Part shown: positions 9,004 through 58,129 of the stretch, in pieces
How the letters are laid out: every line of letters begins with the position of its first letter
Position numbering within the stretch: position 1 is the stretch's first letter
Assembly (NCBI RefSeq): GCF_050920415.1
Contig: NZ_CP169309.1
DNA length: 64,000 nucleotides
Source of the DNA: Escherichia coli
GTDB taxonomy: Bacteria; Pseudomonadota; Gammaproteobacteria; Enterobacterales; Enterobacteriaceae
Direction: 5' to 3' (one strand)
Program-made: the position numbers and the translations under genes
Notes under the pieces: generated by a model
Told to the model about the DNA's origin: nothing
What the model saw: only the letters and a program-made list of their open reading frames with translations
Databases searched by the model: none

Positions 9004-9012
9004 GGAGGAACA

Positions 9013-14333: not shown

Positions 14334-14564
14334 TTATGAAGCATCATTTTTACTGACTGGTGTTAACTTTGCTATCATATAAACTCTGTTCTTAAAAAAC
14401 GCGCCCAGAATTTTATATGATTTCCCTTGTTTTTCTGCCTGTAAAGAAATTTCTTTTTCAGTGCTGTTAATGGTTGAACCGACGGCAGTAATCGTTTTGG
14501 CGACGCTACTGAATGATAATAAAGACAGTGTAACCACAACAATTAAAGAACAGATAGTATTCAC
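14334..14564 (-). CDS. Small secreted protein, possibly YhcN/BhsA (DUF1471) family
   Basis: GTG start 7 nt after an AGGAG RBS; signal peptide; C-terminal pattern resembling DUF1471; lies in AT-rich DNA. Confidence 0.4.
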   Translation of the reverse strand: MNTICSLIVVVTLSLLSFSSVAKTITAVGSTINSTEKEISLQAEKQGKSYKILGAFFKNRVYMIAKLTPVSKNDAS

Positions 14565-14775
14565 GTTAATTCTCCTGACAATTGAGAGGGTGAGTTTTAT
14601 ATACATAGGTATTAAACATGAGTCATATTTACTCCAAGAGAAAATACTCCTTCTGTAATTAAACCTTCATCTCCTTCGGGGTGAGAAATACATAATGCAT
14701 CTTACTATGAAAAACAGGTGGATATAAATTTTCCTCCCTACCTATTTAATAAAACGTGAATATAAAAGTTATTCT

Positions 14776-15498: not shown

Positions 15499-15596
15499 TA
15501 CGTTCTCCTTCAAATGTGTTCGGAGAGATAATAGAACTTTATGATTGGTTCCAGTATCCTGCTTTCAATGTACTCAATGGTTAGCGGCATTAAACA

Positions 15597-16496: not shown

Positions 16497-16623
16497 ATGT
16501 CTGCACCTGCACTGCCTGATGTCAGAACAGTATTTTGAGAAATTGCCAGGGTTACAATGGCACAAATATGGCACAGGAGGAAAACGTGGTGTAATTGAAT
16601 ATGAGGTAACTACTTGATTTAAA

Positions 16624-16699: not shown

Positions 16700-16813
16700 C
16701 CTGAAAGGACATGTTCACGAGCGTGAATCACGGTGGACAAGGTTAAAACTAACCGGGCGATGCGTCAATGGCCTTGTGAATCAAATGGCTACTTTTGCAT
16801 CACCCGGTTTTAT

Positions 16814-18067: not shown

Positions 18068-18078
18068 CGGCCTGCTCC

Positions 18079-19182
18079 TTAACGGGTAATCATGTCATCA
18101 CGGTGAACGGCAACCGGGCCGTATTCATATCCCAGTATTGCATCAATTTCTTGCGAGTGGTGTCCGGCAATACGGCGTAATGCATCGCTGTTGTAACGAC
18201 TGACGCCGTGGGCGATATCGCGACCTTCGAGGTTGCAAATGCGAATGACTTCACCACGCGAGAAGTTGCCGGTTACGCTTTTAATGCCTTTCGGCAACAG
18301 GGAGCTGCCGCGTTCAAGAATGGCGGCGGTTGCCCCTTCATCTACCGTGATTTCACCCGCAGGTGGCGCACCAAAAATCCAGCGTTTACGGTTTTCAAGC
18401 GGAGTTGCCTGGGCATGGAACAGCGTACCGACGGAAATGCCTTCCATCACATCACCAATGACGCCCGGCTTGCTGCCCGCGGCAATAATGGTGTCGATAC
18501 CCGCGCGGCAAGCCACGTCAGCGGCCTGCAATTTGGTGCTCATGCCGCCGGTTCCAAGACCTGAAACGCTGTCACCGGCAATCGCGCGCAGAGCGTCATC
18601 AATGCCGTACACATCTTTAATCAGTTCTGCCTGCGGATTGCTACGCGGGTCAGCGGTATACAAACCTTTTTGATCGGTCAGCAACAACAGTTTATCGGCA
18701 CCGGCCAGAATCGCCGCCAGTGCCGAAAGGTTATCGTTATCGCCGACTTTAATCTCTGCAGTAGCGACAGCATCGTTCTCATTGATTACCGGAACGATGT
18801 TGTTATCGAGCAGTGCACGCAAGGTGTCGCGGGCGTTCAGGAAGCGTTCACGGTCTTCCATATCAGCACGAGTTAGCAGCATCTGCCCGACGTGAATACC
18901 ATAAATCGAAAACAGCTGTTCCCACAGTTGAATCAGTCGACTCTGCCCTACCGCCGCCAGAAGTTGTTTCGAGGCGATAGTCGCTGGCAGTTCCGGGTAA
19001 CCCAGGTGCTCACGTCCGGCGGCAATCGCCCCCGACGTCACAATTACAATCCGATGCCCGGCGGCATGTAGCTGCGCGCACTGGCGAACAAGTTCAACGA
19101 TATGGGCACGGTTCAGGCGGCGCGATCCGCCTGTTAGCACACTGGTGCCGAGTTTTACCACCAGCGTCTGGCTGTCACTCAT
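18079..19182 (-). CDS. proB: Glutamate 5-kinase
   Basis: Start at internal ATG ([19 protein letters not shown]...) gives the canonical 367 aa. Confidence 0.95.
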
Positions 19183-19370
19183 GATTCTCTGCCATTCAAT
19201 TTTAGGGAAAATGATATCAAACGAACGTTTTAGCAGGACTGTCGCCGGTTGCCAACCATCTGCAAGCAAAGCATGGCGTTTTGTTGCGCGGGATCAGCAA
19301 GCGTAGCGGCAGTTGTTTACGCTTTTATTACAGATTTAATAAATTACCACATTTTAAGAATATCATTAAT

Positions 19371-19392
19371 CTGTAATATATCTTTAACAATC
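19371..19392 (+). promoter_or_regulatory. Pho box (PhoB binding site) of the phoE promoter
   Basis: ctgtaatatatctttaacaatc about 80 bp upstream of the phoE start; direct CTGT..-type repeats. Confidence 0.45.
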
Positions 19393-19469
19393 TCAGGTTA
19401 AAAACTTTCCTGTTTTCAACGGGACACTCCCGCTGAATATTCGCGCGTTAATTAAAATCAGGAATGAAA

Positions 19470-20525
19470 ATGAAAAAGAGCACTCTGGCATTAGTGGTGA
19501 TGGGCATTGTGGCATCGGCATCCGTACAGGCCGCAGAAATATATAACAAAGACGGTAATAAACTGGATATCTATGGCAAAGTTAAAGCCATGCATTATAT
19601 GAGTGATAATGACAGTAAAGATGGCGACCAAAGTTATATCCGTTTTGGTTTTAAAGGCGAAACACAAATTAACGATCAACTGACCGGTTATGGTCGCTGG
19701 GAAGCCGAGTTTGCCGGAAATAAAGCAGAGAGTGATACTGCTCAGCAAAAAACGCGTCTTGCCTTTGCCGGGTTGAAATATAAAGATTTGGGTTCTTTCG
19801 ACTATGGTCGTAACCTGGGGGCGCTGTATGACGTGGAAGCATGGACCGATATGTTCCCGGAATTCGGCGGCGATTCCTCCGCGCAGACCGACAACTTTAT
19901 GACCAAACGCGCCAGCGGACTGGCAACGTATCGGAACACCGACTTCTTCGGCGTTATCGATGGTCTGAACTTAACCCTGCAATATCAAGGAAAAAACGAA
20001 AACCGCGACGTTAAAAAGCAAAACGGTGATGGCTTCGGCACGTCATTGACATATGACTTTGGCGGCAGCGATTTCGCCATTAGTGGGGCCTATACCAACT
20101 CCGATCGCACCAACGAGCAGAACCTGCAAAGCCGTGGCACGGGCAAGCGTGCAGAAGCATGGGCAACAGGCCTGAAATACGATGCCAATAATATTTACCT
20201 GGCAACTTTCTATTCTGAAACGCGTAAAATGACGCCAATCTCTGGCGGCTTTGCCAATAAGACGCAGAACTTTGAAGCAGTCGCTCAATACCAATTCGAC
20301 TTTGGCCTGCGTCCATCGCTGGGTTATGTCTTATCGAAAGGGAAAGATATTGAGGGCATCGGTGATGAGGATCTGGTCAATTATATTGATGTCGGTGCTA
20401 CATATTATTTCAACAAAAATATGTCAGCGTTTGTTGATTATAAAATCAACCAACTGGACAGCGATAACAAATTAAATATTAATAATGATGATATTGTCGC
20501 GGTTGGGATGACCTATCAGTTTTAA
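19470..20525 (+). CDS. phoE: Phosphate-starvation outer-membrane porin
   Basis: Signal peptide [21 protein letters not shown]; start at second ATG gives 351 aa. Confidence 0.95.
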
Positions 20526-20563
20526 TGGAGATTGCCGGATGCGGCGCATCCGGCACTTTTCAC

Positions 20564-21022
<459 letters not shown>

Positions 21023-22267
21023 TTAACACAATCGTTTTTCGATCCAGCTCGTGATTTCCTGAAGACCTTTGTCAAAATTCCGATACACCGGATTAAATGG
21101 AATCTCTAACAATTTACCATCAGCAGATGATGAGGTGATTAAGCGTGAGTCCTCTTCCGGGCTGAACGGATCGTTCTTCCAGTAGCCTGATAACATTGGC
21201 GTTGGGCAGCGACGGCCCAGCAATCCTTGCACTTTTAATGAATAACGATTCAGTTCCACACGCAACGCTTCATCGGAAGCATCATGCATCCCCAAACGAC
21301 TCGCCAGAACGTCAAGATACATTTCCGGCACCTGTTGCTGGCACTTAAAATCACTCAACAGGGTATGAACTACTGGACCAAGACAAGCAACCGCTTTCAG
21401 ACGCGGCGATTCAAGATATGCCAGACGCACAGCAACGTTAGCGCCAAAACGGAAACCAAAGGCCGCGACACGGGTGTGATCCACCCACGGGACGTTAGGC
21501 AGCGCCTTTAAGACGTGCTGATGCAACAGGCTGGAGTCCTGAGTGAGCTTCCATTTTGAAGAAAAGCCCACCGACGGCATATCAATAGTCAGCATCGCAA
21601 TGCCGCGCGGGGCAAAATAACGTTCATACAGACTGTAATAATCCGTCTGCATCGCATCCAGACCACCACACATTAATACCGTCGGGAACGGGCCATCGCC
21701 TTTCGGCATATGCAAAAAGCCGGTGATGGGCGCACCGCCTGGTACGGTAAACTCCATCTGCCGCATCGTGCCCGGCAGACGTTGGGCGGCCTCTTCATAG
21801 GCACGGTTTGACAAAGCCTGCGCTTGCTCGGCCAGGTCATCCCCTTTCAGATGAGGATAGGCGGCAATGTTGTACAACGTGGCCGCATGCAGCCAGTGAC
21901 GACCACTGAGTTGTGGATCTTCTTCCGCACAAGCTTTTTGTTGCCACACCATCGCCTGGGTGGCCCATTCATAAATCCAGTTGCCGCCGCGGTAGCCAAT
22001 CACCGTATCGTATAAATCATCGTCGGTACGTTCAGCATCGCTCATCACAATACGCGCCTGAACGTCGAGGATTTCACGTGGGTCAATGCCGCGCCAGATC
22101 CACATCAGACGGTTTATCATGCGATACCAGTGGGGGATGGTTTTACCATCAAGGGCCGACTGCACAGGCGGTTGTGCGCCGTGATTAAAGCGGCGGACTA
22201 GCGTCGAGGTTTCAGGATGTTTAAAGCGGGGTTTGAACAGGGTTTCGCTCAGGTTTGCCTGTGTCAT
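21023..22267 (-). CDS. frsA: Esterase FrsA
   Basis: 414 aa alpha/beta hydrolase; synteny crl-frsA-gpt. Confidence 0.9.
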
Positions 22268-22358
22268 GGATGCAGCCTCCAGAATACTTACTGGAAACTA
22301 TTGTAACCTGCCTGAAGTTAAAAAGAACAACGCCCGGCAGTGCCAGGCGTTGAAAAGA

Positions 22359-22817
22359 TTAGCGACCGGAGATTGGCGGGACGAATACGACGCCCATATC
22401 CCACGGTTGTTCAATCCAGGTATCTTGTGGGATATCAACAACATAATCATCAACCAGCGGACGACCTGCCGGTTTAGCGAAGATGGTGACAAAGTGCGCT
22501 TTTGGATACATTTCACGAATCGCAACCGCAGTACCGCCGGTATCCACCAGATCATCAATAACGATGAAGCCTTCGCCATCGCCTTCTGCGCGTTTCAGCA
22601 CTTTAAGCTCGCGCTGGTTGTCGTGATCGTAGCTGGAAATACAAACGGTATCGACATGACGAATACCCAGTTCACGCGCCAGTAACGCACCCGGTACCAG
22701 ACCGCCACGGCTTACGGCAATAATGCCTTTCCATTGTTCAGAAGGCATCAGTCGGCTTGCGAGTTTACGTGCATGGATCTGCAACATGTCCCAGGTGACG
22801 ATGTATTTTTCGCTCAT
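22359..22817 (-). CDS. gpt: Xanthine-guanine phosphoribosyltransferase
   Basis: 152 aa, PRPP-binding motif ([11 protein letters not shown]). Confidence 0.95.
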
Positions 22818-23077
22818 GTGAAGTGTCCCAGCCTGTTTATCTACGGCTTAAAAAGTGTTCGAGGGGAAAATAGGTTGCGCGAGATTATAGAGATCTGACG
22901 CACTAAAAACCAGTATTTCACATGAGTCCGCGTCTTTTTACGCACAGCCTCTCCCTGACGCGGGATAAAGTGGTATTCTCAAACATATCTCGCAAGCCTG
23001 TCTTGTGTTGACAACATTTTCTGCTAACCCTGTGACCTGCAATACTGTTTTGCGGGTGATCGACAAGGAGACTTAAC

Positions 23078-24535
23078 GTGTCTGAACTGTCTCAATTATC
23101 TCCACAGCCGCTGTGGGATATTTTTGCCAAAATCTGTTCTATTCCTCACCCGTCCTATCATGAAGAGCAACTCGCTGAATACATTGTTGGTTGGGCAAAA
23201 GAGAAAGGTTTCCATGTCGAACGCGATCAGGTGGGTAATATCCTGATTCGTAAACCTGCTACCGCAGGTATGGAAAATCGTAAACCAGTCGTCTTGCAGG
23301 CCCACCTCGATATGGTGCCGCAGAAAAATAACGATACCGTGCACGATTTCACTAAAGATCCTATCCAGCCTTATATTGATGGCGAATGGGTTAAAGCGCG
23401 CGGTACCACGCTGGGCGCGGATAACGGCATTGGTATGGCCTCTGCACTGGCGGTTCTGGCTGACGAAAACGTGGTTCACGGCCCGCTGGAAGTGCTGCTA
23501 ACCATGACCGAAGAAGCCGGTATGGACGGGGCGTTCGGCTTACAGAGCAACTGGTTGCAGGCTGACATTCTGATTAACACCGACTCCGAAGAAGAAGGTG
23601 AAATCTACATGGGTTGTGCTGGGGGGATCGACTTCACCTCCAACCTGCATTTAGATCGTGAAGCCGTTCCGGCTGGTTTTGAAACCTTCAAATTAACCTT
23701 AAAAGGTCTGAAAGGCGGTCACTCCGGCGGTGAAATCCACGTTGGCCTGGGTAACGCGAACAAACTGCTGGTGCGCTTCCTGGCGGGACATGCAGAAGAA
23801 CTGGACCTGCGTCTTATCGATTTCAACGGCGGCACACTGCGTAACGCCATCCCGCGTGAAGCCTTTGCGACCATTGCTGTCGCAGCTGATAAAGTCGACG
23901 CGCTGAAAACGCTGGTGAATACCTATCAGGACATCCTGAAAAACGAGCTGGCAGAGAAAGAGAAAAATCTGGCCTTGTTGCTGGACTCTGTTGCGAACGA
24001 TAAAGCTGCCCTGATTGCGAAATCTCGCGATACCTTTATTCGTCTGTTGAACGCCACCCCTAACGGTGTGATCCGCAACTCCGACGTAGCAAAAGGCGTG
24101 GTTGAAACCTCACTGAACGTCGGTGTCGTGACCATGACCGACAACAACGTAGAAATTCACTGCCTGATCCGTTCTCTGATCGACAGCGGTAAAGACTACG
24201 TGGTGAGCATGCTGGATTCGCTGGGTAAACTGGCAGGCGCGAAAACAGAAGCGAAAGGCGCATATCCTGGCTGGCAGCCGGACGCTAACTCCCCGGTGAT
24301 GCATCTGGTACGCGAAACCTATCAGCGTCTGTTCAACAAGACGCCGAACATCCAGATTATCCACGCGGGTCTGGAATGTGGTCTGTTTAAAAAGCCGTAT
24401 CCGGAAATGGACATGGTTTCTATCGGGCCAACCATTACCGGTCCACACTCTCCGGATGAGCAAGTTCACATCGAAAGCGTAGGCCATTACTGGACACTGC
24501 TGACTGAACTGCTGAAAGAAATTCCGGCGAAGTAA
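23078..24535 (+). CDS. pepD: Cytosol non-specific dipeptidase (aminoacyl-histidine dipeptidase)
   Basis: 485 aa, recognisable PepD sequence. Confidence 0.95.
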   Translation: MSELSQLSPQPLWDIFAKICSIPHPSYHEEQLAEYIVGWAKEKGFHVERDQVGNILIRKPATAGMENRKPVVLQAHLDMVPQKNNDTVHDFTKDPIQPYIDGEWVKARGTTLGADNGIGMASALAVLADENVVHGPLEVLLTMTEEAGMDGAFGLQSNWLQADILINTDSEEEGEIYMGCAGGIDFTSNLHLDREAVPAGFETFKLTLKGLKGGHSGGEIHVGLGNANKLLVRFLAGHAEELDLRLIDFNGGTLRNAIPREAFATIAVAADKVDALKTLVNTYQDILKNELAEKEKNLALLLDSVANDKAALIAKSRDTFIRLLNATPNGVIRNSDVAKGVVETSLNVGVVTMTDNNVEIHCLIRSLIDSGKDYVVSMLDSLGKLAGAKTEAKGAYPGWQPDANSPVMHLVRETYQRLFNKTPNIQIIHAGLECGLFKKPYPEMDMVSIGPTITGPHSPDEQVHIESVGHYWTLLTELLKEIPAK

Positions 24536-40988: not shown

Positions 40989-41051
40989 GTTGGATCCTTA
41001 CCGGTAAATCGTGCCGGATAAAAGCGGCGTGAAGTTGGGGATTCTTAAGTG

Positions 41052-41195
41052 GGAGGGGGTGCGCGCATTGCCCCCTCACCCTAACCCTCTCCCTGAGGGA
41101 GAGGGGACCGATCGAGCACGGTATTGAACAGGGTGCCGGTTTTCTCCCTCTCCCTGTGGGAGAGGGCCGGGGTGAGGGCATCAGCGCGCACCTCC
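41052..41195. repeat. MITE-like composite palindromic repeat, copy A
   Basis: Inverted GC-rich ends (ggtgcgcgc...gcgcgcacc), arms ccctcaccc/gggtgaggg, two internal hairpins ccctctccc-tga-gggagaggg and ctctccc-tgt-gggagag; matches copies B and C. Confidence 0.7.
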
Positions 41196-41197
41196 CC

Positions 41198-47403: not shown

Positions 47404-47739
47404 TTATTTCCCTTCAATGGCCTCTCTGATGCCGCTGATTTGCAGATTCAGAAAGGTCAGACTGCTTTGATAATCCATACTATTTTGTGAAAACCGCGCC
47501 TGTTCGCTGTTCAGTTCCACGGTGTTACCATCTTCCGATGGCTGCATCGGTACGCGATACTGGACATCCACCGCCGCGTTATTTGCCCGTTGCATCTCCC
47601 TGGCAAAATCAATATCTTTAGCCTTGAAATTTGGCGTATCGACATTCGCCAGATTCGCAGTCAGTAGCTCGGTCCTCTCAAGACGTAACTTCACTGCCTG
47701 CGGATGTACTCCCAATGCTTGTTGAAAACTGATCCCCAT
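47404..47739 (-). CDS. lfgB: Rod protein FlgB-like
   Basis: Start at internal ATG with GGAG RBS, aligning with canonical FlgB N-termini; the longer ORF-track start would sit on the promoter. Confidence 0.85.
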   Translation of the reverse strand: MGISFQQALGVHPQAVKLRLERTELLTANLANVDTPNFKAKDIDFAREMQRANNAAVDVQYRVPMQPSEDGNTVELNSEQARFSQNSMDYQSSLTFLNLQISGIREAIEGK

Positions 47740-47776
47740 TTCTTGCGCCACTCCCGCTTCAATCCGCATACGCTAA

Positions 47777-47792
47777 GCAATCGCTGTGCCAA
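47777..47792 (-). promoter_or_regulatory. Sigma-54 (RpoN) promoter of the lfgB-L operon
   Basis: Minus strand reads TTGGCACAGCGATTGCT (TGGCAC-N5-TTGC) about 40 nt upstream of the lfgB start. Confidence 0.6.
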
Positions 47793-47820
47793 TTTTTAAG
47801 TGACTGATGAGAAAGGGTTT

Positions 47821-48558
47821 ATGAGGTTTCAATTTTGCAGGCGGAAGTTGTATTTCCTCCTGGCGCTGGCCTTACCGGGCTACGCCGCCGTCCATCCCGT
47901 GCAACATAGCGCGCGGGAACAAATCAACGCCCAGGTGCTGAATGCCGCGAGCCAGCAGATTGAATCGCTGGCGCAACAGCGGCAGTGGCATGACTATCGC
48001 TACACCTTTAAGGTCTACATTCCCTCGCAGATTGCGACCGCCGCGCCCTGCGCTACGGCCCCCGGCGTCACGCTGACGTCGCCTGCGGAAATCGCTCTCA
48101 ACCGGATGAACTTCACCGTCAGTTGCCCGCAAAGCTGGCAGATGAACGTTGCGGTGCGCCCGGATGTTCTGGTGCCGGTGGTGATGGCGAAGTCACTGGT
48201 TGCCCGCGATACGCCGCTCACGGCAAATGATGTGGAGCTGAAGCCCTACAACGTCAGCGCCCAGCGGCGGGATGTGCTGATGGATCTCAATGAAGCGATT
48301 GGTTTAAGCAGCAAACATGCCCTGCAACCAGGCAGGCCGCTTACCAAAGAAGAACTGGTTTCGCCAGTGCTGATCGAGCGCGATCAGCCGGTGATGATTG
48401 TTTACCAGAGCGCGGGGATCACCGCCTCGATGCCCGGCGTGGCGCTGAAAAATGGTCGCAAAGGGGAAATGGTGAAAGTACGTAACGCCAGCAGCCAGCG
48501 GGTCATTAGCGCGATGGTGGCCGAAAGCGGCGTGGTGACAACGGTAAGCGCGGAGTAA
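47821..48558 (+). CDS. lfgA: P-ring assembly chaperone FlgA-like
   Basis: Signal peptide and SAF-type C-terminal domain; divergent from lfgB; start at second ATG. Confidence 0.75.
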   Translation: MRFQFCRRKLYFLLALALPGYAAVHPVQHSAREQINAQVLNAASQQIESLAQQRQWHDYRYTFKVYIPSQIATAAPCATAPGVTLTSPAEIALNRMNFTVSCPQSWQMNVAVRPDVLVPVVMAKSLVARDTPLTANDVELKPYNVSAQRRDVLMDLNEAIGLSSKHALQPGRPLTKEELVSPVLIERDQPVMIVYQSAGITASMPGVALKNGRKGEMVKVRNASSQRVISAMVAESGVVTTVSAE

Positions 48559-48746
48559 TTTGCTTCGATACCGCGTAGCATATGTATGACTATCTCCCAA
48601 TATTATGACTTTCTGACAAATTTCATCGTGTCTTTTGGATAATTATTGAGCACTCAATCACTACTGTTTAAATATCCAGATGGTAACTATTTCATCTGGG
48701 TCAAATGAGTGATACTGTATCACCAATAAGACCTATGGGGGATGCT

Positions 48747-50171
48747 ATGTCTGAATTTGAATTACTCGTGAAAGATCTTCTTTTAAAATCAGAAGAAGAC
48801 GAGAAAAAGCGACAAGAAAAAGATCGAGAATTAATTTCAAAGGTCCTTGAAATCTATGATCAAAAATATGTTGCAGAACTCTTACGAAAACTAGGAAAAA
48901 ATGAATGGAGCAGAGAAACACTTAACCGTTGGATAAATGGTAAGTGCAATCCTAAGCAATTAACTTCTGCGGAGGAAACTTTACTCCGCAAGATGCTTCC
49001 AGAACCTCCTGAACATCATCCTAACTACACATTTCGTTTTATTGATTTATTCGCAGGGATTGGTGGTATTCGTAAAGGTTTCGAAAACATTGGTGGACAG
49101 TGTGTTTTTACCAGCGAATGGAATAAAGAAGCGGTAAGAACCTACAAAGCTAATTGGTTTAATGATGAACTAAATCATAAATTTAATCTTGATATACGAG
49201 AAGTCACTTTAAGTGATAGAGATGATGTTTCCGAAGTAGAAGCCTATAATCATATAGACAAAAATATTCCAGATCATGATGTCCTTCTGGCCGGTTTTCC
49301 ATGTCAGCCCTTTAGTCTGGCTGGGGTAAGCAAGAAAAACTCTCTGGGGCGTGCACATGGTTTTGAATGTGAGGCACAAGGAACACTATTTTTTGATGTC
49401 GCTCGGATTATTAAATCAAAAAAACCAGCTATTTTTGTGCTTGAGAATGTGAAAAACCTTAAAAGTCATGATAAAGGTAAGACTTTTAAAGTCATCATGG
49501 AAACACTCGATGAATTAGGATATGAAGTCGCCGATGCTGGTGTTACTGGCTCAGATGATCCCAAAATTATAGATGGAAAACATTTTTTACCCCAACATCG
49601 TGAGCGTATAGTGTTGGTAGGATTTCGTAGAGATCTGAATATTCACAAGGATTTCACGTTACGAAACATTAACCGCTTTTACCCTCAAAACAGGCCAACA
49701 TTTGGTGAATTATTAGATCATGATGTTGACGATAAATATATTTTGACTCCAAGGTTATGGGAATATCTTTACAATTATGCAAAAAAACATGCAGCAAAAG
49801 GCAATGGGTTTGGTTTTGGTTTAGTGGATCCTAAAAATCCAGATAGTATCGCAAGGACTCTGTCTGCTCGTTATCATAAAGATGGCTCTGAAATATTGAT
49901 TGATCGTGGCTGGGATAAGGCTGTCGGTGAAATTGACTTTAGTAATCCAGCGAATCAAGAGCATCGTCCAAGAAGACTGACACCTCACGAATGTGCCAGG
50001 CTAATGGGTTTTGAAAAACCAGGGGGAAGACCTTTTAGAATACCTGTATCGGATACACAAGCCTATAGACAATTTGGGAACTCAGTTGTTGTTCCAGTAT
50101 TTGAAGCTGTAGCAAGATTACTAGAACCATATATACAAAAGGCAGTCAATATGCATATTATTAACGATTAA
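48747..50171 (+). CDS. DNA cytosine-5 methyltransferase, EcoRII/Dcm family (CCWGG specificity predicted)
   Basis: Motifs [30 protein letters not shown]; near-colinear with the M.EcoRII/Dcm sequence as I recall it; GGGGA RBS before the ATG; AT-rich relative to flanks. Confidence 0.9.
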
Positions 50172-50194
50172 TAATAATTAATTTTCACTATTGT

Positions 50195-50217
50195 GAGGCC
50201 TTTTTATTAAAGGCCTC
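50195..50217. terminator. Bidirectional hairpin terminator between the convergent M and R genes
   Basis: gaggccttt-ttatt-aaaggcctc flanked by A/T runs. Confidence 0.5.
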
Positions 50218-50257
50218 TAAATATATAATCATGAGTTTTTACAAGTATGTTTTTATA

Positions 50258-51463
50258 TTATACAAAATCTTCATAAAGCGTTATTAACTGTGTAATAAAA
50301 CCATCTAATGTTAATATTTCCTCCCTGATTTCCTCCGGGTATTTTTTATGAAGAGGGGAAGGTACAACCAAGGTGACACCTTCAGCTCTCATTTCGTTAA
50401 ATTGAGCAACAGAGACACCCTCTTGCAAGGTAAACAAATATATCTTGTTGATTTTATTTGCTTCATTAAGCGCCTGTCGCCACCGATCCTTACATGTTGT
50501 TTTTACAGCAAGCATACGGAGTTTTTCTCTTGGAAAGTGATCATCATGGTAAGCTGCCGCTGATGGGAAAAGAAAATCGGGTTTCTTTTTTCCTTCAGTA
50601 ATACATTGAGTAGCAAAATGATGCAGTCCATGCTCAATAAAAATTTGCTCAAGATGTAGCTCCAGTGATTTCCCGGCTCGAGATTTTCTTCTATTACTAA
50701 CAGAGTTAGCCATAGCTATAAAATCATCTACAGAACCAAATCCTTGACGGATGATGTCCAGTACGTGAATTTCTTCAACCATTAGAAAGAGATCATATTC
50801 AATACGGCGGCGTTCTAAAAGTTGGTCATCTGGACTGGTTACGCCTGTTGGGTAATAACCTGCCGCATATTGGATAATATCTAAGCCAGAAGGAAAACTA
50901 TGTTTCCAGCTTTCCGGAATAACATATTCCTTTTGAGAGATTTTTGGCCTTGATGCGAGTACACCAAGTATTTCACTGGCAGGCCCAAACATTAAAGTTC
51001 CTGGAATGATCTCCCCAACAGCTGATTCCAGTACATCCTCTTCTTCTGGGCTTACACAAACCCATACATCAACACTTTTGCTGTCTCTCCCAGGCTCATG
51101 TTCAAACGCAAGCACAGACAAAGCACCTGTATTTTCCGGATCTTGTAGGGGACTGCCAGCCCCCCACCGAGTGATACGTTTTTCATTTCTTGTTTGCCCG
51201 AAATACTTATTATTGTAGTAAATAGCGCGAACCTCACTGTCTACACATTCATGAGAGGAATAAGTTGCGCGCAATAAAACCGAAGGATTTTTTTCTGACG
51301 TATGATCTATAGATGGGAAAAGTTCACCGACGATACCGGAAGGGATATATACCCCCACTTGATGCCCTCCTGTTGCACCAGTGTCGTTTGCTGAAAGACG
51401 TTTGATATAGAGATAATTGTTACCACCGACCTTATCAAGCAGCCAATCTTGTAATCCTGACAT
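50258..51463 (-). CDS. Type IIE restriction endonuclease, EcoRII family
   Basis: 401 aa; long conserved blocks matching R.EcoRII as I recall it (YIKRLSANDTGATGGHQVG, RNEKRITRWG, SPLQDPENTGAL, SVSNRRKSRAGKSLELHLE, KPDFLFPS, LRMLAVKTTCKDRWRQ); convergent with the methyltransferase. Confidence 0.85.
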   Translation of the reverse strand: MSGLQDWLLDKVGGNNYLYIKRLSANDTGATGGHQVGVYIPSGIVGELFPSIDHTSEKNPSVLLRATYSSHECVDSEVRAIYYNNKYFGQTRNEKRITRWGAGSPLQDPENTGALSVLAFEHEPGRDSKSVDVWVCVSPEEEDVLESAVGEIIPGTLMFGPASEILGVLASRPKISQKEYVIPESWKHSFPSGLDIIQYAAGYYPTGVTSPDDQLLERRRIEYDLFLMVEEIHVLDIIRQGFGSVDDFIAMANSVSNRRKSRAGKSLELHLEQIFIEHGLHHFATQCITEGKKKPDFLFPSAAAYHDDHFPREKLRMLAVKTTCKDRWRQALNEANKINKIYLFTLQEGVSVAQFNEMRAEGVTLVVPSPLHKKYPEEIREEILTLDGFITQLITLYEDFV

Positions 51464-51633
51464 AAGACATCCTTATTTTTGCATAGTATCCGATTCAGAT
51501 TTTTCCACATATCCATCAGAACGACCAGAACCAACATATCTGAACAAAAAGTAAATATGCGATAACGATTAAAGTTTTGCCGCCTGTTAACCGCTTTACC
51601 GGAGTAACCACCCAATACCGAGACGAGGTTGCG

Positions 51634-51912
51634 ATGAAAATCACCCCGACGATGCCAGGCAATCGCCCGACAGCCACAACGGCAGGCTCCAGCCAGCCGC
51701 GTAAAAGTACGGCGACCACCACCACGACGCTGAGTGCCGACGACATTACCCAGGCGGGATTGCAGTCTGCCCAGCAAACGCTGAACGACCAGCAAGAGAG
51801 CGATATCGACAGCGATAAAGTGGCGCAAATGCAGGCGATGCTGGCGTCCGGCAGCCTGCAAGTGGACACCGAACAGTTAGCCAGCGACATGCTGAGTTTT
51901 TTCCAGAACTAA
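51634..51912 (+). CDS. lfgM: Anti-sigma-28 factor FlgM-like
   Basis: Start at internal ATG with GAGG RBS; about 92 aa, Thr/Ser-rich N-terminus, C-terminal sigma-binding-like helix. Confidence 0.7.
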   Translation: MKITPTMPGNRPTATTAGSSQPRKSTATTTTTLSADDITQAGLQSAQQTLNDQQESDIDSDKVAQMQAMLASGSLQVDTEQLASDMLSFFQN

Positions 51913-51924
51913 GAGGCCGATGAA

Positions 51925-52353
51925 GTGAGTATCCGGTTACAACAGGTGAAGGCGTTGTTGCAGGGCATTCGTGACGATGACGCGCTGTACGATTCCCTGC
52001 GCGAACTTCTCCAGCGTCAGCGGATCTGCATGATTCGCCGCGCCAGTGAAGAGTTGCTGGCGGTAAACGACGAGATAACGCAGCACTATGAGCAGTTGCA
52101 TGGACATAGCCATCAGCGCCATAGCCTGCTGAAAATGCTCGGTGTTAGCGTCAATCGTGACGGTCTGGCGCAGGTGTTTGCCTGGCTTCCGGCGGTACAA
52201 AAAGCGGCAGCACAACAGTTGTGGCAACGCCTGGAGCAAAAAACGGAACGCTGCAAAGCCTATAACGATAAAAACGGCGAGCTGTTGATTCGTCAGTATG
52301 AATTTATTCAGTCTTTTTTAGGCAGCGAAGCGGATTTTCTGTATCAGGAATAA
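51925..52353 (+). CDS. lfgN: Flagellar export chaperone FlgN-like
   Basis: GTG start 8 nt after AAGAGG; 142 aa helical; follows lfgM. Confidence 0.65.
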   Translation: MSIRLQQVKALLQGIRDDDALYDSLRELLQRQRICMIRRASEELLAVNDEITQHYEQLHGHSHQRHSLLKMLGVSVNRDGLAQVFAWLPAVQKAAAQQLWQRLEQKTERCKAYNDKNGELLIRQYEFIQSFLGSEADFLYQE

Positions 52354-52430
52354 CGCGAATACCTTCCCCATAGCGGAAACGGATTTTCCGCCTGATTTCC
52401 AATCCTTTGTTTTTGATTAAAAAAATTCCC

Positions 52431-52479: not shown

Positions 52480-53409
52480 ATGAGTTTTATTGAATGTTAC
52501 GAACCGGAATATGCGCGCAATTTTATGGCGCAATATCCCGATTCGCCTTTATACGTCCGCAAGGTGTGGAAGAATGAGATTCGCCAGAGCCTGGCATTGA
52601 CCGATATTGCCAGTTGCAAAGCAGTGCTCAACAATGCCAGGGCCTTTGAATTACAGCTTACCTATCGCCCTGTGGAAGAAAATGCCGCAGCGCTATCTGC
52701 GCGCGATGCGATAGTAAACCAGATAATTTTGAGCACCCTCACGCTCCCGGATTTAACCCCAGAGCTTTCACTGTATGCCGTCGGGATTTTGCTCTCCCGC
52801 GCCAGTAAAATGCCGGGCAGAGACGGCGACACTCTCGCCCGGCTGACAGCACTGCCGCAGGCGCTGGCCGATCACGCACAAAAAGGCACGTTACAGGCAC
52901 AGTTCGCACAGCTACCGCCTGTGCCACAGCTGGCGCGCCAACTGGTGACGCTGCTCGGGAGTTTTGCGTTTGACTGGTCGATTCTGCCGAAAAGCCCGCG
53001 CAAAGCCTCACTGCCGTTGCAGGTTACCTTGCTGACGCTGCACGACGCCAACAGCGAAGCCCTGTTGCAGCAGCAGCTTCAGACACAGTGGCAAACTACC
53101 TGGCAACAGCATTTTGCCACCGCGCCGTGGATGATGCGTAACTGGCTAATTTACCGGGTTTATCACGATGTGATTGGCCAGGCAGACGGGGCGGATTATT
53201 TCCCGCTGGTGTGCGATTTTTACCTCATCCGCACGTTAATCAGTTTATGGACGCTGGATGATTCACCGCTGCGGCAGGAGGATATTTTCGCCCTCTTCGC
53301 GGTGTTTGAACGCTGGCGAACCAGTGAAAATGCCGTGCTGATTCGCCAGCAAATTCAGTCATTATGTGCCGCCGACCCGCTGCTTTCAGCGTTTTCGTTG
53401 CTGACGTGA
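52480..53409 (+). CDS. Hypothetical protein, no recognisable domain; apparent sigma-54 regulon member within Flag-2
   Basis: 309 aa from the first ATG downstream of the promoter; typical GC content; the ORF-track start at 52441 is a TTG inside the promoter. Confidence 0.6.
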   Translation: MSFIECYEPEYARNFMAQYPDSPLYVRKVWKNEIRQSLALTDIASCKAVLNNARAFELQLTYRPVEENAAALSARDAIVNQIILSTLTLPDLTPELSLYAVGILLSRASKMPGRDGDTLARLTALPQALADHAQKGTLQAQFAQLPPVPQLARQLVTLLGSFAFDWSILPKSPRKASLPLQVTLLTLHDANSEALLQQQLQTQWQTTWQQHFATAPWMMRNWLIYRVYHDVIGQADGADYFPLVCDFYLIRTLISLWTLDDSPLRQEDIFALFAVFERWRTSENAVLIRQQIQSLCAADPLLSAFSLLT

Positions 53410-53416
53410 GTCGCTC

Positions 53417-53553
53417 TGTGCGCGCTTTGCCCTCACCCCGGCCCTCTCCCACAGGGAGAGGGAGAAACCCTGCGCCCAATTCAGCACCGCGCTCGATCGG
53501 TCCCCTCGCCCCTTCGGGGAGAGGGTTAGGGTGAGGGACATCAGCGCGCGCAT
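53417..53553. repeat. MITE-like composite palindromic repeat, copy C (inverted relative to A and B)
   Basis: Reverse complement of the copy A/B core: ccctcaccccggccctctcccacagggagaggg ... ggggagagggttagggtgaggg with gcgcgc ends. Confidence 0.7.
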
Positions 53554-53596
53554 TCAGCACCTCCATCACATTCACCCACTAACTCACCCAAACACC

Positions 53597-56041
53597 ATGC
53601 CAACACCAAGCATCATCAAAACACTCGCCACCCACCGCGAAAAACCGTTCGTCAGCGTCGTCACGCCAACATGGAACCGCGGCGCATTCCTCCCGTACCT
53701 GCTCTATATGTACCGCTATCAGGACTACCCGGCAGACCGCCGCGAACTGGTCATCCTTGACGACTCGCCGCAAAGCCATCAACACATCATCGACCGCCTG
53801 ACCAATGGCACGCCGGAAGCCTTTAACATCCGCTACATCCATCACCCGGAAAAACTGCCGCTGGGAAAAAAACGCAATATGCTCAACGAACTGGCGAGCG
53901 GCGAATATATCCTCTGCATGGATGACGACGACTACTACCCGGCAGATAAAATCTCTTACACCATCGCCATGATGCAAAAACACCGGGCGCTGATCTCCGG
54001 TTCCGACCAGATCCCCATCTGGTACAGCCATATCAACCGCATCTTTCAAAGCCGCAGCTTTGGCCCGCGTAACATCCTCAACGGCACCTTTTGTTATCAC
54101 CGTAACTACCTGAAAAAGCACCGTTACAATGACGATTGCAATTTAGGCGAAGAGAAAAGTTTCACCGACAATTTCAGCGTAAACCCGCTGCAACTGCCCG
54201 GCGAGCGCACGATTTTGTGTATTTCGCATAGCCACAACACCTTTGATAAAGACTTTATTCTCGGGGCCAGCACGCCAGTAAACGCGGCGCTTACGGATAT
54301 CGTCACCGATCCGCTGCTCCGCAATGCTTATCTGAGTCTGCATAACGCCACGCATCACCAGGGGATCAACCATCAGGCGATCTATCAGATCGTTCTGCTG
54401 AATCTGGATAAACGCCCGGATCGTTTACGGCAGATCCGTGAAGAGCTGGCATTGCTGCATATTCCGCCTGAAAAAATTACCCGCCTTGCCGCCTGTGAAG
54501 ATGAAAACGGTCAACGGGGCCGCCGCCTGTCGCACTTGCAGGCGCTACGCCTGGCGCAACAGCACGGCTGGCAAAACTATCTGCTGCTGGAAGATGACGC
54601 GGTTATTCTCAAGCAGGAGAAACATATTCAGGTGCTGAACACGCTGCTGGCGAGCCTGGCGAAAATTCCCTGGCAGGTGATGATCCTCGGAGGCGAAATT
54701 TCGCAAGGAACAATGCTAAAAAGCCTGCCGGGGCTGGTGCACGCGCAGGACTGCCGCAAAGTGTGCGCTTATCTGGTGAACAGCCGGTACTACCCACAAC
54801 TGGCGCAGCAGATGAGTAACGATGAGCACTCGCTGGAAGACGGCTGGCAGCCACTGCTGCGTGCCGACAAATGGCTGGCCTGTTACCCGAGCCTTAGTTA
54901 TCAGCGACCGGGCTTTAGCGATATCGAGAAAAAAGCGACTGATAACATTAACCACTACTTCAATAAGTTACCCGTAGCCACCAAGCCATCTACATTACCT
55001 ATCGCCGACACCATCGGCTTTTTAATGGAAACCTCATTCCACTACGCGCTCTATCGCCCAATCATCACCGCTCTACAGGCGCAGGGGCAGAGCTGCACGC
55101 TGGTGATCAACGACCGCGTGTTTAAACCGTTTCTGGATGAAATGCTGGAGACGCTAAAAACCATCGACGATCCGCAGCTCAAAGGTATGCGCTTGTCTGA
55201 GATGCAGGCACACGGTCAGCGGGTGAAATGCCTGGTCAGCCCCTACCACACGCCCGCGCTCAATGGCCTGGCAGCGGTGAACATCCGCGCTATGTACGGC
55301 TTAGCCAAAGAAACGTGGAACCACGCCGACTGGAACCGTTTTTATCAGCGCATTTTGTGTTATAGCCACTACAGTCAGCAGGCGCTGGCGCATTTCGGCA
55401 GCGCAAAAGTGGTCGGCAATCCACGCTTCGACGCCTGGCATAACGGCACGTTCGACCGTGCGTTGCCGGAAAATATCCAACCAGATTACCGTAAACCTAC
55501 GGTGCTCTACGCCCCAACATTTGGCGCATTAAGCTCCCTGCCCCACTGGGCAGAAAAATTGGGCCGCTTAAGCGGTGATGTGAACCTGATTTGCAAACTG
55601 CACCACGGTACCTGCTCGCGCCCGGAAGAAGCCGCATCGCTGACCCTGGCACGCAGGCATTTAAAGCAGAGCACCGACTCCGCCCGTCACACGCTGGCGA
55701 TGCTGGCAAAAGCCGATTACGTGCTCACCGATAACAGCGGCTTTATTTTCGATGCTATCCACGTTGATAAGCGGGTGATCCTGCTCGACTTTCCGGGCAT
55801 GACGGAACTGCTCGACGGTGAGAAAAGTTATTCCACACCGGAGAGCGCCGACCAGCGAATCCGCGAAATATTACCGGTGGCTCATGATATGGCTGAGCTG
55901 CGTTACTTATTGTCAGAGGCGTTTGACTGGGGGGCGGTACAGGCGCGGCTTACGGAGATTCGCCATCACTATTGTGACGCGTTTATGGATGGCAAGGCGG
56001 GAGAACGGGCGGCGATGGTGGTTGTGGAGGCATTGGGGTAA
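53597..56041 (+). CDS. Three-domain glycosyltransferase: GT2-like N-terminus, GT25-like middle, TagF-like CDP-glycerol glycerophosphotransferase C-terminus
   Basis: About 815 aa; N-terminus VSVVTPTWNR and DDD motif; middle LNLDKRPDRL..LLLEDDAV; C-terminus PTVLYAPTFG and YVLTDNSGFIFDA; ORF-track start at 53531 lies inside repeat C. Confidence 0.8.
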   Translation: MPTPSIIKTLATHREKPFVSVVTPTWNRGAFLPYLLYMYRYQDYPADRRELVILDDSPQSHQHIIDRLTNGTPEAFNIRYIHHPEKLPLGKKRNMLNELASGEYILCMDDDDYYPADKISYTIAMMQKHRALISGSDQIPIWYSHINRIFQSRSFGPRNILNGTFCYHRNYLKKHRYNDDCNLGEEKSFTDNFSVNPLQLPGERTILCISHSHNTFDKDFILGASTPVNAALTDIVTDPLLRNAYLSLHNATHHQGINHQAIYQIVLLNLDKRPDRLRQIREELALLHIPPEKITRLAACEDENGQRGRRLSHLQALRLAQQHGWQNYLLLEDDAVILKQEKHIQVLNTLLASLAKIPWQVMILGGEISQGTMLKSLPGLVHAQDCRKVCAYLVNSRYYPQLAQQMSNDEHSLEDGWQPLLRADKWLACYPSLSYQRPGFSDIEKKATDNINHYFNKLPVATKPSTLPIADTIGFLMETSFHYALYRPIITALQAQGQSCTLVINDRVFKPFLDEMLETLKTIDDPQLKGMRLSEMQAHGQRVKCLVSPYHTPALNGLAAVNIRAMYGLAKETWNHADWNRFYQRILCYSHYSQQALAHFGSAKVVGNPRFDAWHNGTFDRALPENIQPDYRKPTVLYAPTFGALSSLPHWAEKLGRLSGDVNLICKLHHGTCSRPEEAASLTLARRHLKQSTDSARHTLAMLAKADYVLTDNSGFIFDAIHVDKRVILLDFPGMTELLDGEKSYSTPESADQRIREILPVAHDMAELRYLLSEAFDWGAVQARLTEIRHHYCDAFMDGKAGERAAMVVVEALG

Positions 56042-56052
56042 ACCGCAGAAGT

Positions 56053-56150
<98 letters not shown>

Positions 56151-56367
56151 CGAACAGCGCACTTATCTACCCTTCGATTTTAAATACATCTCTTTATGGC
56201 TGGTGAATCGGTAAAGTCGTAGATTGTGGGGGAGCGATCTTTATGAATTCTGAAAAAACCCTGAATCTTGCTAAACATATTGCTTATCATAAATATAGGT
56301 TACACACTATAAAAATTACTGCGTAATTTAACATCTTGCCTAAAAATGATAGAGCGTAAACGATAAT

Positions 56368-57189
56368 ATGACTTCTGATAAAAAAGTAACTTCCGGTACG
56401 ACAAGCCAGAAACAAAACAACATTGTCACTCAAAAAATATCACGCCAGAAGGAATTGTTTCTATTATTTTGGGTTGATGAGTCCGATGATAGCCGACGTT
56501 CTATTTTTGAAGAAGCATGTCTGACGCGTTATTTCAATATCCTTTATTCCCCCGAGTATAAAAAAGAAACACAGATAGTTTATCATTTATCAATTAACAC
56601 ATTTAATCAAATCAAAGAAATATTAGAAATCTTTATAAACAAGAATGGAGGTAAAACTAAAGCAAAGGTTAAAGAAGTCAGTTTATTCTCACATGGGGGG
56701 CCAATTCATGGTCCTACAACCTCAAACTCTATAAATACACCTTCCGTGCCTAAATACCCACAACAAATGGACATATCCGGAGGATGGGATTCAATTGATT
56801 TTAACTGGTCAAACAATGCTATGTTTGTTATGTATGGTTGTCGCACTAGTTATGCAAGTGATGATTCAGGACAAGGTTTTGCCAGTAAATTATCCCTATT
56901 AGATAATTTTAAGGACGTGAATGTCTGGGGTCAAACAGAAAGTACTTATCCATCTTATTTCCCAGATATCAGGACAACGTCGATTATGAGGTCAATAAAT
57001 ATAGGTTGGTCTTTTTCACCAACATATATGGTTGCCAATTCTGAAGGTCAAGGATGGGATGCATTATTCCCGGATAATCGAAATCCATTAAAAGCTCTCC
57101 CTATGCAGTGTTATAATAATGGGACATTGATTTTAACCTGCGATCAAAGCAATTTTAATGATCACCGGAAGAATAAATCAAATGATTAG
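56368..57189 (+). CDS. Hypothetical protein in AT-rich DNA, no assignable domain (candidate toxin/effector of a two-gene cassette)
   Basis: 273 aa single long ORF in strongly AT-rich DNA; no signal peptide; possible His...Cys pair (FSHGGPIHG ... MYGCRTS); weak RBS. Confidence 0.55.
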   Translation: MTSDKKVTSGTTSQKQNNIVTQKISRQKELFLLFWVDESDDSRRSIFEEACLTRYFNILYSPEYKKETQIVYHLSINTFNQIKEILEIFINKNGGKTKAKVKEVSLFSHGGPIHGPTTSNSINTPSVPKYPQQMDISGGWDSIDFNWSNNAMFVMYGCRTSYASDDSGQGFASKLSLLDNFKDVNVWGQTESTYPSYFPDIRTTSIMRSINIGWSFSPTYMVANSEGQGWDALFPDNRNPLKALPMQCYNNGTLILTCDQSNFNDHRKNKSND

Positions 57190-57721
57190 CATTGTATTGA
57201 GAAGCTTTATTTTATTATTCATAATAATAGTGTATCCGGATTATAATAAAAACCCACCTGCCTTTGAAGTATATGGGGAAAATGACATACTTAAGGATAT
57301 GGTTATTAATATGAAAACTTATAGATACCATAGTAAGGAAAACTCTTCCCCCACAGCTATAGTGCAAACCATCCTTTTTAAAGGAAATATACAGCAAGTT
57401 TTTGAAAGCAATGACATGGGTGGTGCGAGCTTCTTTTTTTCTTATAATAATAAGGTTGAAACGCTGGTAACAGACGCTTTCTTTTTAAATAAAAAATTAG
57501 ACAAACTGCATGATGCAAATATTTTTGAGGTTATAAAGCATAAGGAAAACATCGTTATTAGATATTACAAGTGCAAAATTGAATATATGCAAAGAGAAAA
57601 ATTTATCGAAATAGAGATATCAACAAACAAAAATAGTTATTTTAACAAGAATGGAATAAAACAAAAAGATACAAATAAATATAACACATATTTCTTCAAT
57701 TACTTTGAGTCTCAAAAATAA
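57182..57721 (+). CDS. Hypothetical protein with N-terminal hydrophobic anchor, AT-rich (candidate immunity/partner protein)
   Basis: ATG overlaps the stop of the upstream gene (ATGATTAG); N-terminal SIVLRSFILLFIIIVY hydrophobic segment; Asn/Lys/Tyr-rich; alternative start at 57158. Confidence 0.5.
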   Translation: MISIVLRSFILLFIIIVYPDYNKNPPAFEVYGENDILKDMVINMKTYRYHSKENSSPTAIVQTILFKGNIQQVFESNDMGGASFFFSYNNKVETLVTDAFFLNKKLDKLHDANIFEVIKHKENIVIRYYKCKIEYMQREKFIEIEISTNKNSYFNKNGIKQKDTNKYNTYFFNYFESQK

Positions 57722-57724
57722 ATT

Positions 57725-58129
57725 TTATTTTGTCATGCGCGCCCTCCTAATCACCTCAATAATCCCCGTCGTCGACACCGACGGCGTGCGGGGGAAATAG
57801 ACCACCTCACAAATATACGCGAAGCTATCAAACTTCCCTGCCCAGTCATCGCCCATCACCAAAACATCCGCACTGTACCCCCGCAGATATTCCGCTTTCT
57901 GCGCCAGCGATTCCTCGAGAAATACGCCATCCACGCACGCCAGCCCGGCGATAATCGCCATGCGGTCATCCTGAGGGTAAACCGGTGCCCTGCCCTTTTT
58001 GGCAATATTTAAGGCGTCGGACGACACGCCAACCAGCAGCCGTTCGCCCAGCGTGCGGGCGCGTTGTAAAAGGCGCAGATGACCGACATGAAACACATCG
58101 AAGGTGCCGAAGGTGATGACCGTTTTCAT
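57725..58129 (-). CDS. Cytidylyltransferase, TagD-like (glycerol-3-phosphate cytidylyltransferase family)
   Basis: N-terminal FGTFDVFHVGH nucleotidyltransferase motif; about 134 aa; ATG 2 nt after the lfiJ stop with a GGAG RBS inside the lfiJ 3-prime end. Confidence 0.8.
   Translation of the reverse strand: MKTVITFGTFDVFHVGHLRLLQRARTLGERLLVGVSSDALNIAKKGRAPVYPQDDRMAIIAGLACVDGVFLEESLAQKAEYLRGYSADVLVMGDDWAGKFDSFAYICEVVYFPRTPSVSTTGIIEVIRRARMTK

Follow-up and report, generated by a model that had tools for sequence, protein, structure and literature searches.

An EcoRII-family restriction-modification unit, probably of horizontal origin, between lfgA and lfgM in the Flag-2 locus of Escherichia coli

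We analysed a 64-kb stretch of the Escherichia coli MFDS1022581 chromosome (the window) in which the Flag-2 genes lfgA and lfgM are separated by an interval at positions 48559–51633 that begins one base past the lfgA stop codon (TAA, 48556–48558) and ends just before the lfgM ATG at 51634. The interval is filled by two convergent ORFs, a methylase (M) on the plus strand followed by an endonuclease (R) on the minus strand. The features of the region are:

47821–48558, plus strand: lfgA, Flag-2 flgA homologue and left neighbour (RefSeq annotation of the identical record)
48554–48563: left target repeat AGTAATTTGC, sharing bases with the lfgA stop codon (filled-versus-empty site alignment)
48564–51560: foreign insert, 2,997 bp, 38.2% G+C (empty-site comparison, composition, repeat search)
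48747–50171, plus strand: M, Dcm/M.EcoRII-type C5 cytosine methyltransferase, 474 aa (3ME5 match, Pfam, NCBIfam, motifs, dN/dS)
50195–50217: hairpin GAGGCCTTT-TTATT-AAAGGCCTC with a 9-bp stem, between both stop codons (fold, z = -3.7 on both strands)
50258–51463, minus strand: R, EcoRII-family Type IIE restriction endonuclease, 401 aa (1NA6 alignment, Pfam, residue comparison, dN/dS)
51550–51560: right target repeat AGTAAATATGC, a diverged copy beyond which native sequence restarts (alignment of filled and empty sites)
51570–51597, plus strand: sigma-28 (LafS)-like motif TAAAGTTT-N13-CCGCTTT, just inside the right flank and beside lfgM (by sequence resemblance)
51634–51912, plus strand: lfgM, Flag-2 anti-sigma factor and right neighbour
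51925–52353, plus strand: lfgN, Flag-2 chaperone, 3' of lfgM

The G+C content is 34–44% over 48.5–51.5 kb and 56–60% in the flanks, and that of the insert as a whole lies 17 points under the Flag-2 locus (about 55%). Alignment of filled and empty sites placed the left junction at 48563|48564, 5 bp past the lfgA stop codon. The direct repeat flanking the insert is imperfect and 10–11 bp long, perhaps the remainder of an 18-bp repeat, and matches the empty site. The 2,997-bp insert has neither a transposase nor an integrase gene, and its ends lack inverted repeats; the repeat search returned chance-level repeats only, and an Rfam scan of 48300–51900 gave zero RNA-family matches. An earlier sequence-only reading had described an AT-rich insert between lfgA and lfgM, which is now confirmed with exact coordinates.

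R matches crystallised EcoRII over its full length (PDB 1NA6, E = 2e-188; 68.8% amino-acid identity, 401 versus 404 aa) and contains an N-terminal effector domain (EcoRII-N, PF09217, residues 16–164, E = 1.6e-59) and a C-terminal catalytic domain (EcoRII-C, PF09019, residues 226–390, E = 1.1e-70). We compared R with a list of 28 catalytic, base-reading, flipping-pocket, or phosphate-contact residues of EcoRII (Golovenko et al. 2009, PMC2770665), of which 27 are identical; the sole change, K92Q, affects a phosphate contact. The active site residues Glu271, Asp299, Lys324, and Glu337 are all kept as E268, D296, K321, and E334. Also identical (EcoRII numbering) are the residues that read out CC:GG (Lys328-Asp329-Arg330 and Asn260), those that form the pocket for the flipped base (Arg222, Glu225, Tyr226, Phe229, Arg265, and Ala266), and the base contacts of the effector domain (His36, Gln37, Arg94, and Glu96). 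Because 27 of the 28 catalytic and DNA-contact residues are kept, specificity of R for CCWGG is very likely, and an altered specificity at 69% identity to EcoRII is unlikely.

M matches the structure of a Dcm-type methylase (3ME5, E = 7e-212), has the Pfam domains DNA_methylase and, at the N-terminus, DNA_meth_N (PF18284, E = 9e-26), and scores 913.8 bits against the NCBIfam Dcm subfamily model NF007772/PRK10458 (cut-off 710). An in-frame ATG upstream at 48705 is an alternative start that extends the protein to 488 aa, and in this numbering the methylase motifs are found at 116 (I, FAGIGG), 199 (IV, PCQPFS), 247 (VI, ENV), 297 (VIII, QHRER), and 458 (X, GNSV). Identity is about 69% to Dcm and 68% to the chromosomal Dcm of the same strain, which has the same domain layout. 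The expected target of M, from its sequence, is the inner cytosine of CCWGG. The convergent EcoRII-type methylase and endonuclease that the sequence-only reading had proposed are both present; the reading's match to EcoRII stands as membership in the family and not as identity with EcoRII itself, since at about 69% identity to EcoRII and Dcm the pair represents a distinct family member. The reading also held that no vsr-like gene accompanies the methylase, in agreement with the lack of any Vsr homologue in the 64-kb window (best tblastn E = 4.5).

The stem of the hairpin between the two stop codons is invariant in 10 alleles. No U-tract follows the stem in either direction, and a scan with the canonical terminator consensus gave no call. 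The shared hairpin suggested previously is stable and conserved, and it probably acts as a bidirectional transcription stop for both genes.

The plasmid EcoRII system (PDB 1NA6/3HQF/3HQG; M.EcoRII) likewise consists of a two-domain Type IIE endonuclease and a Dcm-like methylase with an extra N-terminal domain. The catalytic, CC:GG-reading, and base-flipping residues are identical in the two systems. EcoRII is plasmid-borne, whereas the Flag-2 unit resides on the chromosome, fixed within the Flag-2 locus, and clustering at 90% identity places it in a separate cluster with 252 sequences. Chromosomal Dcm-Vsr differs in that Dcm is an orphan methylase whose gene overlaps vsr, while the Flag-2 M has an endonuclease partner and no vsr. 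The closest relatives found outside Escherichia are pairs of the Klebsiella oxytoca group (K. spallanzanii, K. grimontii), with 77% (R) and 88% (M) identity in K. spallanzanii; these are also convergent with a hairpin in the same spot, but the hairpin sequences are not homologous and the locus is not flagellar. In genomes of other species, the R relatives found are accompanied by a cognate methylase and have no flagellar neighbours. No plasmid carrying the pair was found at the megablast level, where only methylase matches of 74% identity on Phytobacter plasmids were returned. The R-M units described by Furuta, Abe and Kobayashi (2010, NAR 38:2428), which are flanked by target repeats and include insertions into operon-like structures, resemble the Flag-2 unit in that it is a bare R-M pair lacking mobility genes, has a direct repeat spanning a stop codon, and lies inside an operon-like run; its repeat differs in being short and imperfect.

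The pair is already known. De Maayer, Pillay and Coutinho (2020, BMC Genomics 21:100, PMC6993521) reported EcoRII and Dcm as cargo of flag-2 loci in 21 Escherichia strains, and by genes, sizes (401 aa, 474 aa), locus, and genus the insert is the same feature. Relative to the parts of that paper considered here, the present analysis adds the exact junctions, the Dcm/Vsr redundancy, the selection analysis, and the promoter context.

This part of Flag-2 is present in 1,279 of 5,426 complete E. coli genomes surveyed, and the insert in 28 of these 1,279. Junctions are identical in all ten carriers compared in full, and the empty sites (~1,250 complete genomes) have a clean 80-bp lfgA-lfgM spacer, in line with the short interval that the sequence-only reading had assumed for other flagellar loci. 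These identical junctions, together with the 80-bp spacer in the remaining genomes, indicate that the pair was gained by insertion, in one single event. The clean empty sites, the deviant G+C content, and the flanking repeats that match the target, albeit imperfectly, are those of a horizontally inserted R-M unit. The inserts of the window lineage and of other carriers have diverged by 3.3–4.0%, close to the roughly 4% of neighbouring housekeeping genes, which makes the insertion an old one, possibly earlier than the lineage split. The same similarity in divergence could be taken to mean that the pair is an ancestral component of the Escherichia Flag-2 locus that was deleted from most lineages. 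We regard this as extremely unlikely given the G+C content 17 points under that of the locus, the R relatives in other species' genomes without flagellar neighbours, and the reported restriction of the pair to 21 Escherichia strains in a survey of 592 enterobacterial flag-2 loci (PMC6993521). Furthermore, no empty site has the sequence expected of a precise deletion between the repeats; a search for this excision scar across the complete E. coli genomes gave no 100% match and a best match of 97.5%. The 97.5% match, in ATCC 8739, reflects a naturally occurring spacer variant, CGCTAA. The proposal of an inserted rather than ancestral pair is supported by the distribution.

Distances of insert and flanks disagree among alleles. 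The inserts of E700025 and ETEC1738 are 0.0% apart and their flanks 3.9%, while the filled allele of A42 and the empty allele of O25b:H4 have flanks just 0.7% apart, which indicates recombinational exchange between Flag-2 alleles.

Both ORFs are full length without internal stops in 10 of 10 carriers, and with dN/dS of 0.04–0.10 for M and 0.04–0.08 for R at dS of up to 0.21 (ten carriers), both genes are under strong purifying selection. That the pair is a decaying relic, inactive and persisting as neutral in a dcm+ host in which losing either gene would be harmless, is very unlikely in view of the intact ORFs, these low ratios, and the conservation of every catalytic and base-reading residue. 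Strong purifying selection on M is unexpected if host Dcm renders M fully redundant.

Intact dcm and vsr genes adjoin each other at 2,025,051–2,026,920 of the same chromosome, 2 Mb from the insert, and 27 of the 28 carriers show a second M-like (Dcm-like) locus. The sequence-only reading had suggested that the pair could act as an addiction module, i.e., that post-segregational restriction kills cells losing the pair and thereby stabilises the dispensable Flag-2 locus. Type II R-M units, plasmid EcoRII included, are documented as selfish addictive elements (PMC3424554; PMC2853133), and 3.3–4.0% divergence has accumulated while the unit stayed intact at a single site. An addiction module should, however, have no other methylase guarding the same sites, and here the intact host dcm would do so, with the shared site deduced from sequence; Dcm has moreover been reported to protect E. 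coli against parasitism by EcoRII (PMC3424554). If M and Dcm share CCWGG, M would be redundant and loss of the unit not lethal, because host dcm is present. Only 28 of the 1,279 Flag-2-bearing genomes have the unit, and a filled and an empty allele differing by 0.7% in their flanks show that loss or gain of the unit can occur while the locus is kept. Since deleting the insert alone leaves Flag-2 in place, any protection by addiction would be limited to deletions spanning the insert. The addiction role is thus undermined; we consider it improbable, and the unit is probably unable to act in this way. That reading had also proposed a check for CCWGG depletion, and no special depletion was apparent. 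Throughout the window, CCWGG counts are near what composition predicts, and against a Markov expectation (observed/expected 0.59–0.74) the modest shortfall is alike in all regions and specific to neither the insert nor the locus.

Taken together, the insert is most probably a horizontally acquired, stand-alone EcoRII-family Type IIE R-M unit that was inserted once into the lfgA-lfgM spacer and rides as Flag-2 cargo, outside flagellar function. The N-terminal effector domain of R would bind one copy of CCWGG and its C-terminal PD-(D/E)XK domain would cut another after the central base pair is flipped out, so that incoming DNA without Dcm-type methylation would be restricted. M would methylate the inner cytosine and, if M and Dcm share this site, the host vsr would supply T:G mismatch repair in trans. 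Transcripts of both genes would halt at the intergenic hairpin. The long persistence of the unit appears better explained by selection for defence, combined with homologous recombination in the flanks that spreads it among Flag-2 alleles, than by addiction. It is an ordinary, previously described defence-gene cargo and a clear instance of two defence genes carried within a flagellar locus, and otherwise of little import. The orphan Dcm of E. coli is thought to have evolved to neutralise EcoRII-type systems, and an EcoRII-type system under purifying selection in a dcm-bearing species is a mildly interesting evolutionary point. The 28 carrier strains offer a natural test bed for whether the persistence of R-M units needs addiction at all.

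The insertion falls precisely into the gap that separates a stop codon from the putative promoter after it, and broke neither gene. lfgA is intact in 14 of 14 alleles compared, and the sigma-28-like motif is nearly invariant among the filled and empty alleles compared, with similar motifs upstream of lafA and lfgK. Because the insert lies upstream of this motif, which is still attached to lfgM, lfgMN probably retains its own sigma-28-type promoter, from which it would be transcribed, and read-through from lfgA would now enter M. The previous suggestion that the insert separates lfgA from the lfgMN promoter therefore applies to the read-through from lfgA, which is cut off, but probably not to the motif adjacent to lfgM. 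A functional coupling of the R-M unit to the lateral-flagellar programme is distinctly improbable. M could be co-transcribed with lfgA, raising restriction or methylation capacity when Flag-2 is switched on, or methylation by M could tune lfgMN expression; alternatively, the unit could be a balanced defence polymorphism bound to particular Flag-2 alleles. These ideas start from the observation that the unit has remained intact at one site for roughly the time since the divergent Escherichia lineage of the window parted from mainstream E. coli, and has done so despite a host Dcm that should make M redundant and cancel addiction.

The interval 48559-51633 is precisely the lfgA-lfgM gap: it opens directly after the TAA stop of lfgA (48556-48558) and runs up to the ATG start of lfgM (51634). 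The window as a whole matches the E. coli MFDS1022581 chromosome at 100% identity. The gap contains two long convergent ORFs, encoding a Dcm/M.EcoRII-type C5 methylase (M) and an EcoRII-type endonuclease (R), and has a G+C content of 34-44% vs 56-60% on either side; location, convergence and AT-richness are thus as described in the sequence-only reading. The features of the interval are as follows.

48747-50171, plus strand: M, 474 aa with the start used in the RefSeq annotation (an alternative in-frame ATG at 48705 gives 488 aa)
50195-50217, between both stop codons: hairpin with a 9-bp stem and a 5-nt loop
50258-51463, minus strand: R, 401 aa
51570-51597, nine bases downstream of the right-hand copy of a flanking repeat: promoter-like motif TAAAGTTT-N13-CCGCTTT

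R aligned over its whole length with the EcoRII crystal structure (PDB 1NA6, E=2e-188, 68.8% identity) and also with the separately crystallised EcoRII N and C domains, and contains the Pfam domains EcoRII-N and EcoRII-C. We compared 28 EcoRII positions to which Golovenko et al. 2009 (PMC2770665) assign a role in catalysis, base reading, the flipping pocket or phosphate contact, namely the catalytic residues E271, D299, K324, and E337, the CC:GG read-out residues K328, D329, R330, and N260, the flipped-central-base pocket R222, E225, Y226, F229, R265, and A266, the effector-domain base readers H36, Q37, R94, and E96, and ten phosphate contacts. R is identical to EcoRII at 27 of them, the sole change (K92Q) being at a phosphate contact, and CCWGG specificity and Type IIE behaviour of R are therefore well supported by residue conservation. 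M matched the Dcm-type methylase structure 3ME5 (E=7e-212, 69% identity), carries the Pfam domains DNA_methylase and N-terminal DNA_meth_N, scored 914 bits on the NCBIfam Dcm subfamily model (cut-off 710), and has motifs I, IV (PCQ), VI (ENV), VIII, and X. Its identity to the host chromosomal Dcm is 68%. In the EcoRII system the N-terminal part of the methylase is an auto-repressor (reviewed in PMC12707154), and by analogy auto-repression by the N-terminal part of M is plausible. By every sequence criterion testable here, the pair is a member of the EcoRII family, as had been proposed. The pair has been described before as flag-2 cargo: De Maayer et al. 2020 (PMC6993521) listed genes for EcoRII (401 aa) and for Dcm (474 aa) among the cargo that 21 Escherichia strains carry in this locus. 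The present analysis adds the exact junctions, the case for a single event, selection figures, the retained promoter motif, and an argument against addiction from host dcm and vsr; these additions leave the category of the feature unchanged.

This part of Flag-2 was present in 1,279 of 5,426 complete E. coli genomes, the only genomes surveyed, and just 28 carried the insert, all on the chromosome and all at this site. Empty sites have an lfgA-lfgM spacer of 80-81 bp, which bears out the proposed insertion into Flag-2. The insert spans 48564-51560 (2,997 bp, G+C 38.2% vs ~55% in the Flag-2 flanks). Because the junctions were identical in all ten carriers read base by base, both divergent insert alleles included, we infer one insertion event. 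The target sequence recurs at both ends of the insert as an imperfect direct repeat, AGTAATTTGC (48554-48563) and AGTAAATATGC (51550-51560), whose left copy overlaps the lfgA stop codon. The insert contains no mobility genes and no terminal inverted repeats, and an excision scar, the sequence expected from precise deletion between the repeats, was found in none of the genomes searched. Furuta et al. 2010 (PMC2853133) catalogued both naked R-M units with flanking target repeats spanning stop codons and R-M units that had inserted in operon-like runs of genes. The closest endonucleases outside Escherichia have 77% (Klebsiella oxytoca group) and 75% (Leclercia) identity to R, and the Flag-2 form constitutes a separate 90% cluster of 252 sequences. 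The R relatives found in other species come with a cognate methylase and lack flagellar neighbours. In the carrier ETEC1738, the region separating the R start codon from the lfgM promoter motif has two additional copies of the 9-bp unit CAGAACGAC (about 4100-4290 of its stretch L034, corresponding to window position 51516).

The window and N96 share an insert allele 3.3-4.0% from those of other carriers, which are 0-1.7% apart among themselves. The housekeeping genes at 16712-24433 (proA-proB-phoE-crl-frsA-gpt-pepD) were only 95.5-96.0% identical in other complete E. coli genomes sampled, with at least 99% identity in just two of 5,424 matching records; from these 7.7 kb the strain therefore seems to belong to a divergent lineage. 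MFDS1022581 and N96 together seem to form a deep branch of Escherichia that may be a cryptic clade recorded as E. coli, and the insert divergence would be about that expected from vertical descent since the lineage split. Insert and flank distances also conflict: E700025 and ETEC1738 have identical inserts in flanks 3.9% apart, and the flanks of filled A42 and empty O25b:H4 differ by only 0.7%. This disagreement indicates that homologous recombination in the flanking sequence has moved or removed the unit as well. The Flag-2 genes beside the insert (47404-48558 and 51575-52400) are unusually polymorphic in E. coli, with nucleotide divergence up to 6.8%, dS of 0.19-0.31 for lfgA and lfgN, and flank divergence exceeding insert divergence.

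Both genes were full-length in the ten carriers read and are under purifying selection, with pairwise dN/dS of 0.04-0.10 for M (dS up to 0.21) and 0.04-0.08 for R (dS up to 0.13). The suggestion that the unit is an addiction-type module stabilising the Flag-2 locus is unlikely. Host dcm and vsr are intact (2,025,051-2,026,920 of the same chromosome), and a second Dcm-like locus was found in 27/28 carriers. Dcm shares the EcoRII site and is credited with shielding E. coli against EcoRII parasitism (PMC3424554), so in these hosts the chromosome should stay protected if the unit is lost. The insert is moreover rare (2% of Flag-2 loci), and filled and empty alleles can be closely related, as in A42 and O25b:H4. 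No Vsr homologue was detected within the window, in agreement with the sequence-only reading. Purifying selection on R, where its loss would be harmless, instead argues for a benefit, most plausibly restriction of DNA from dcm-minus sources. M is well conserved too, which is unexpected given host Dcm. CCWGG sites, for which depletion had been raised, showed no special depletion anywhere in the window. NZ_CP090611.1 (4.42-Mb chromosome) is the lone carrier with a single M-like locus in a distant DNA search and may lack host dcm; the Flag-2 M would then be its sole CCWGG methylase, and addiction could operate there.

On either strand, the hairpin between the genes folds with much greater stability than shuffled controls (z = -3.7), and its stem was unchanged in all ten alleles read; Klebsiella relatives have hairpins at the same position that are non-homologous to it. 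Both strands lack a U-tract, and the hairpin was not called by the consensus terminator scan. The proposed shared hairpin is thus present, and its role as a terminator is a reasonable inference only.

lfgA, lfgM, and lfgN are all intact. The motif at 51570-51597 is near-invariant across filled and empty alleles and similar to motifs that precede lafA and lfgK within the window; by this resemblance alone, they are candidate LafS (sigma-28-type) promoters. If so, lfgMN would be cut off from lfgA read-through, which would enter M, and would keep their own promoter. The proposed separation of lfgA from the lfgMN promoter region would accordingly apply to read-through and not to the motif itself. 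Elsewhere on this chromosome, outside the window, an IS2 insertion splits fliC, the gene for the primary flagellin, which is annotated as two pseudogene fragments (NZ_CP169399.1 2057795-2060462; 27796-30463 of the stretch L041), and the main flagellar system may be non-functional. In the annotated stretches read, no Flag-2 gene carries a pseudogene flag.

Between lfgN and lfiJ, the variable region of Flag-2 has a second AT-rich block (56000-57750, 29-35% G+C), with two hypothetical genes adjoining an 836-aa glycosyltransferase ORF (53531-56041); also near it is a gene (52480-53409) whose annotation in other strains is lysine-N-methylase. G+C-rich palindromic repeats of the GGGAGAGGG...CCCTCTCCC type occur in Flag-2 intergenic regions upstream of lfgK (40990-41197) and of the glycosyltransferase (about 53240-53575) and are a source of spurious ORFs. 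Positions 1-16600 hold a lambdoid prophage integrated beside tRNA-Thr (16522-16597; integrase 15389-16507); the prophage encodes a DNA methyltransferase of its own (1261-2313), together with an N6-adenine methyltransferase (7207-7860) and a KAP-family NTPase (2929-4260).
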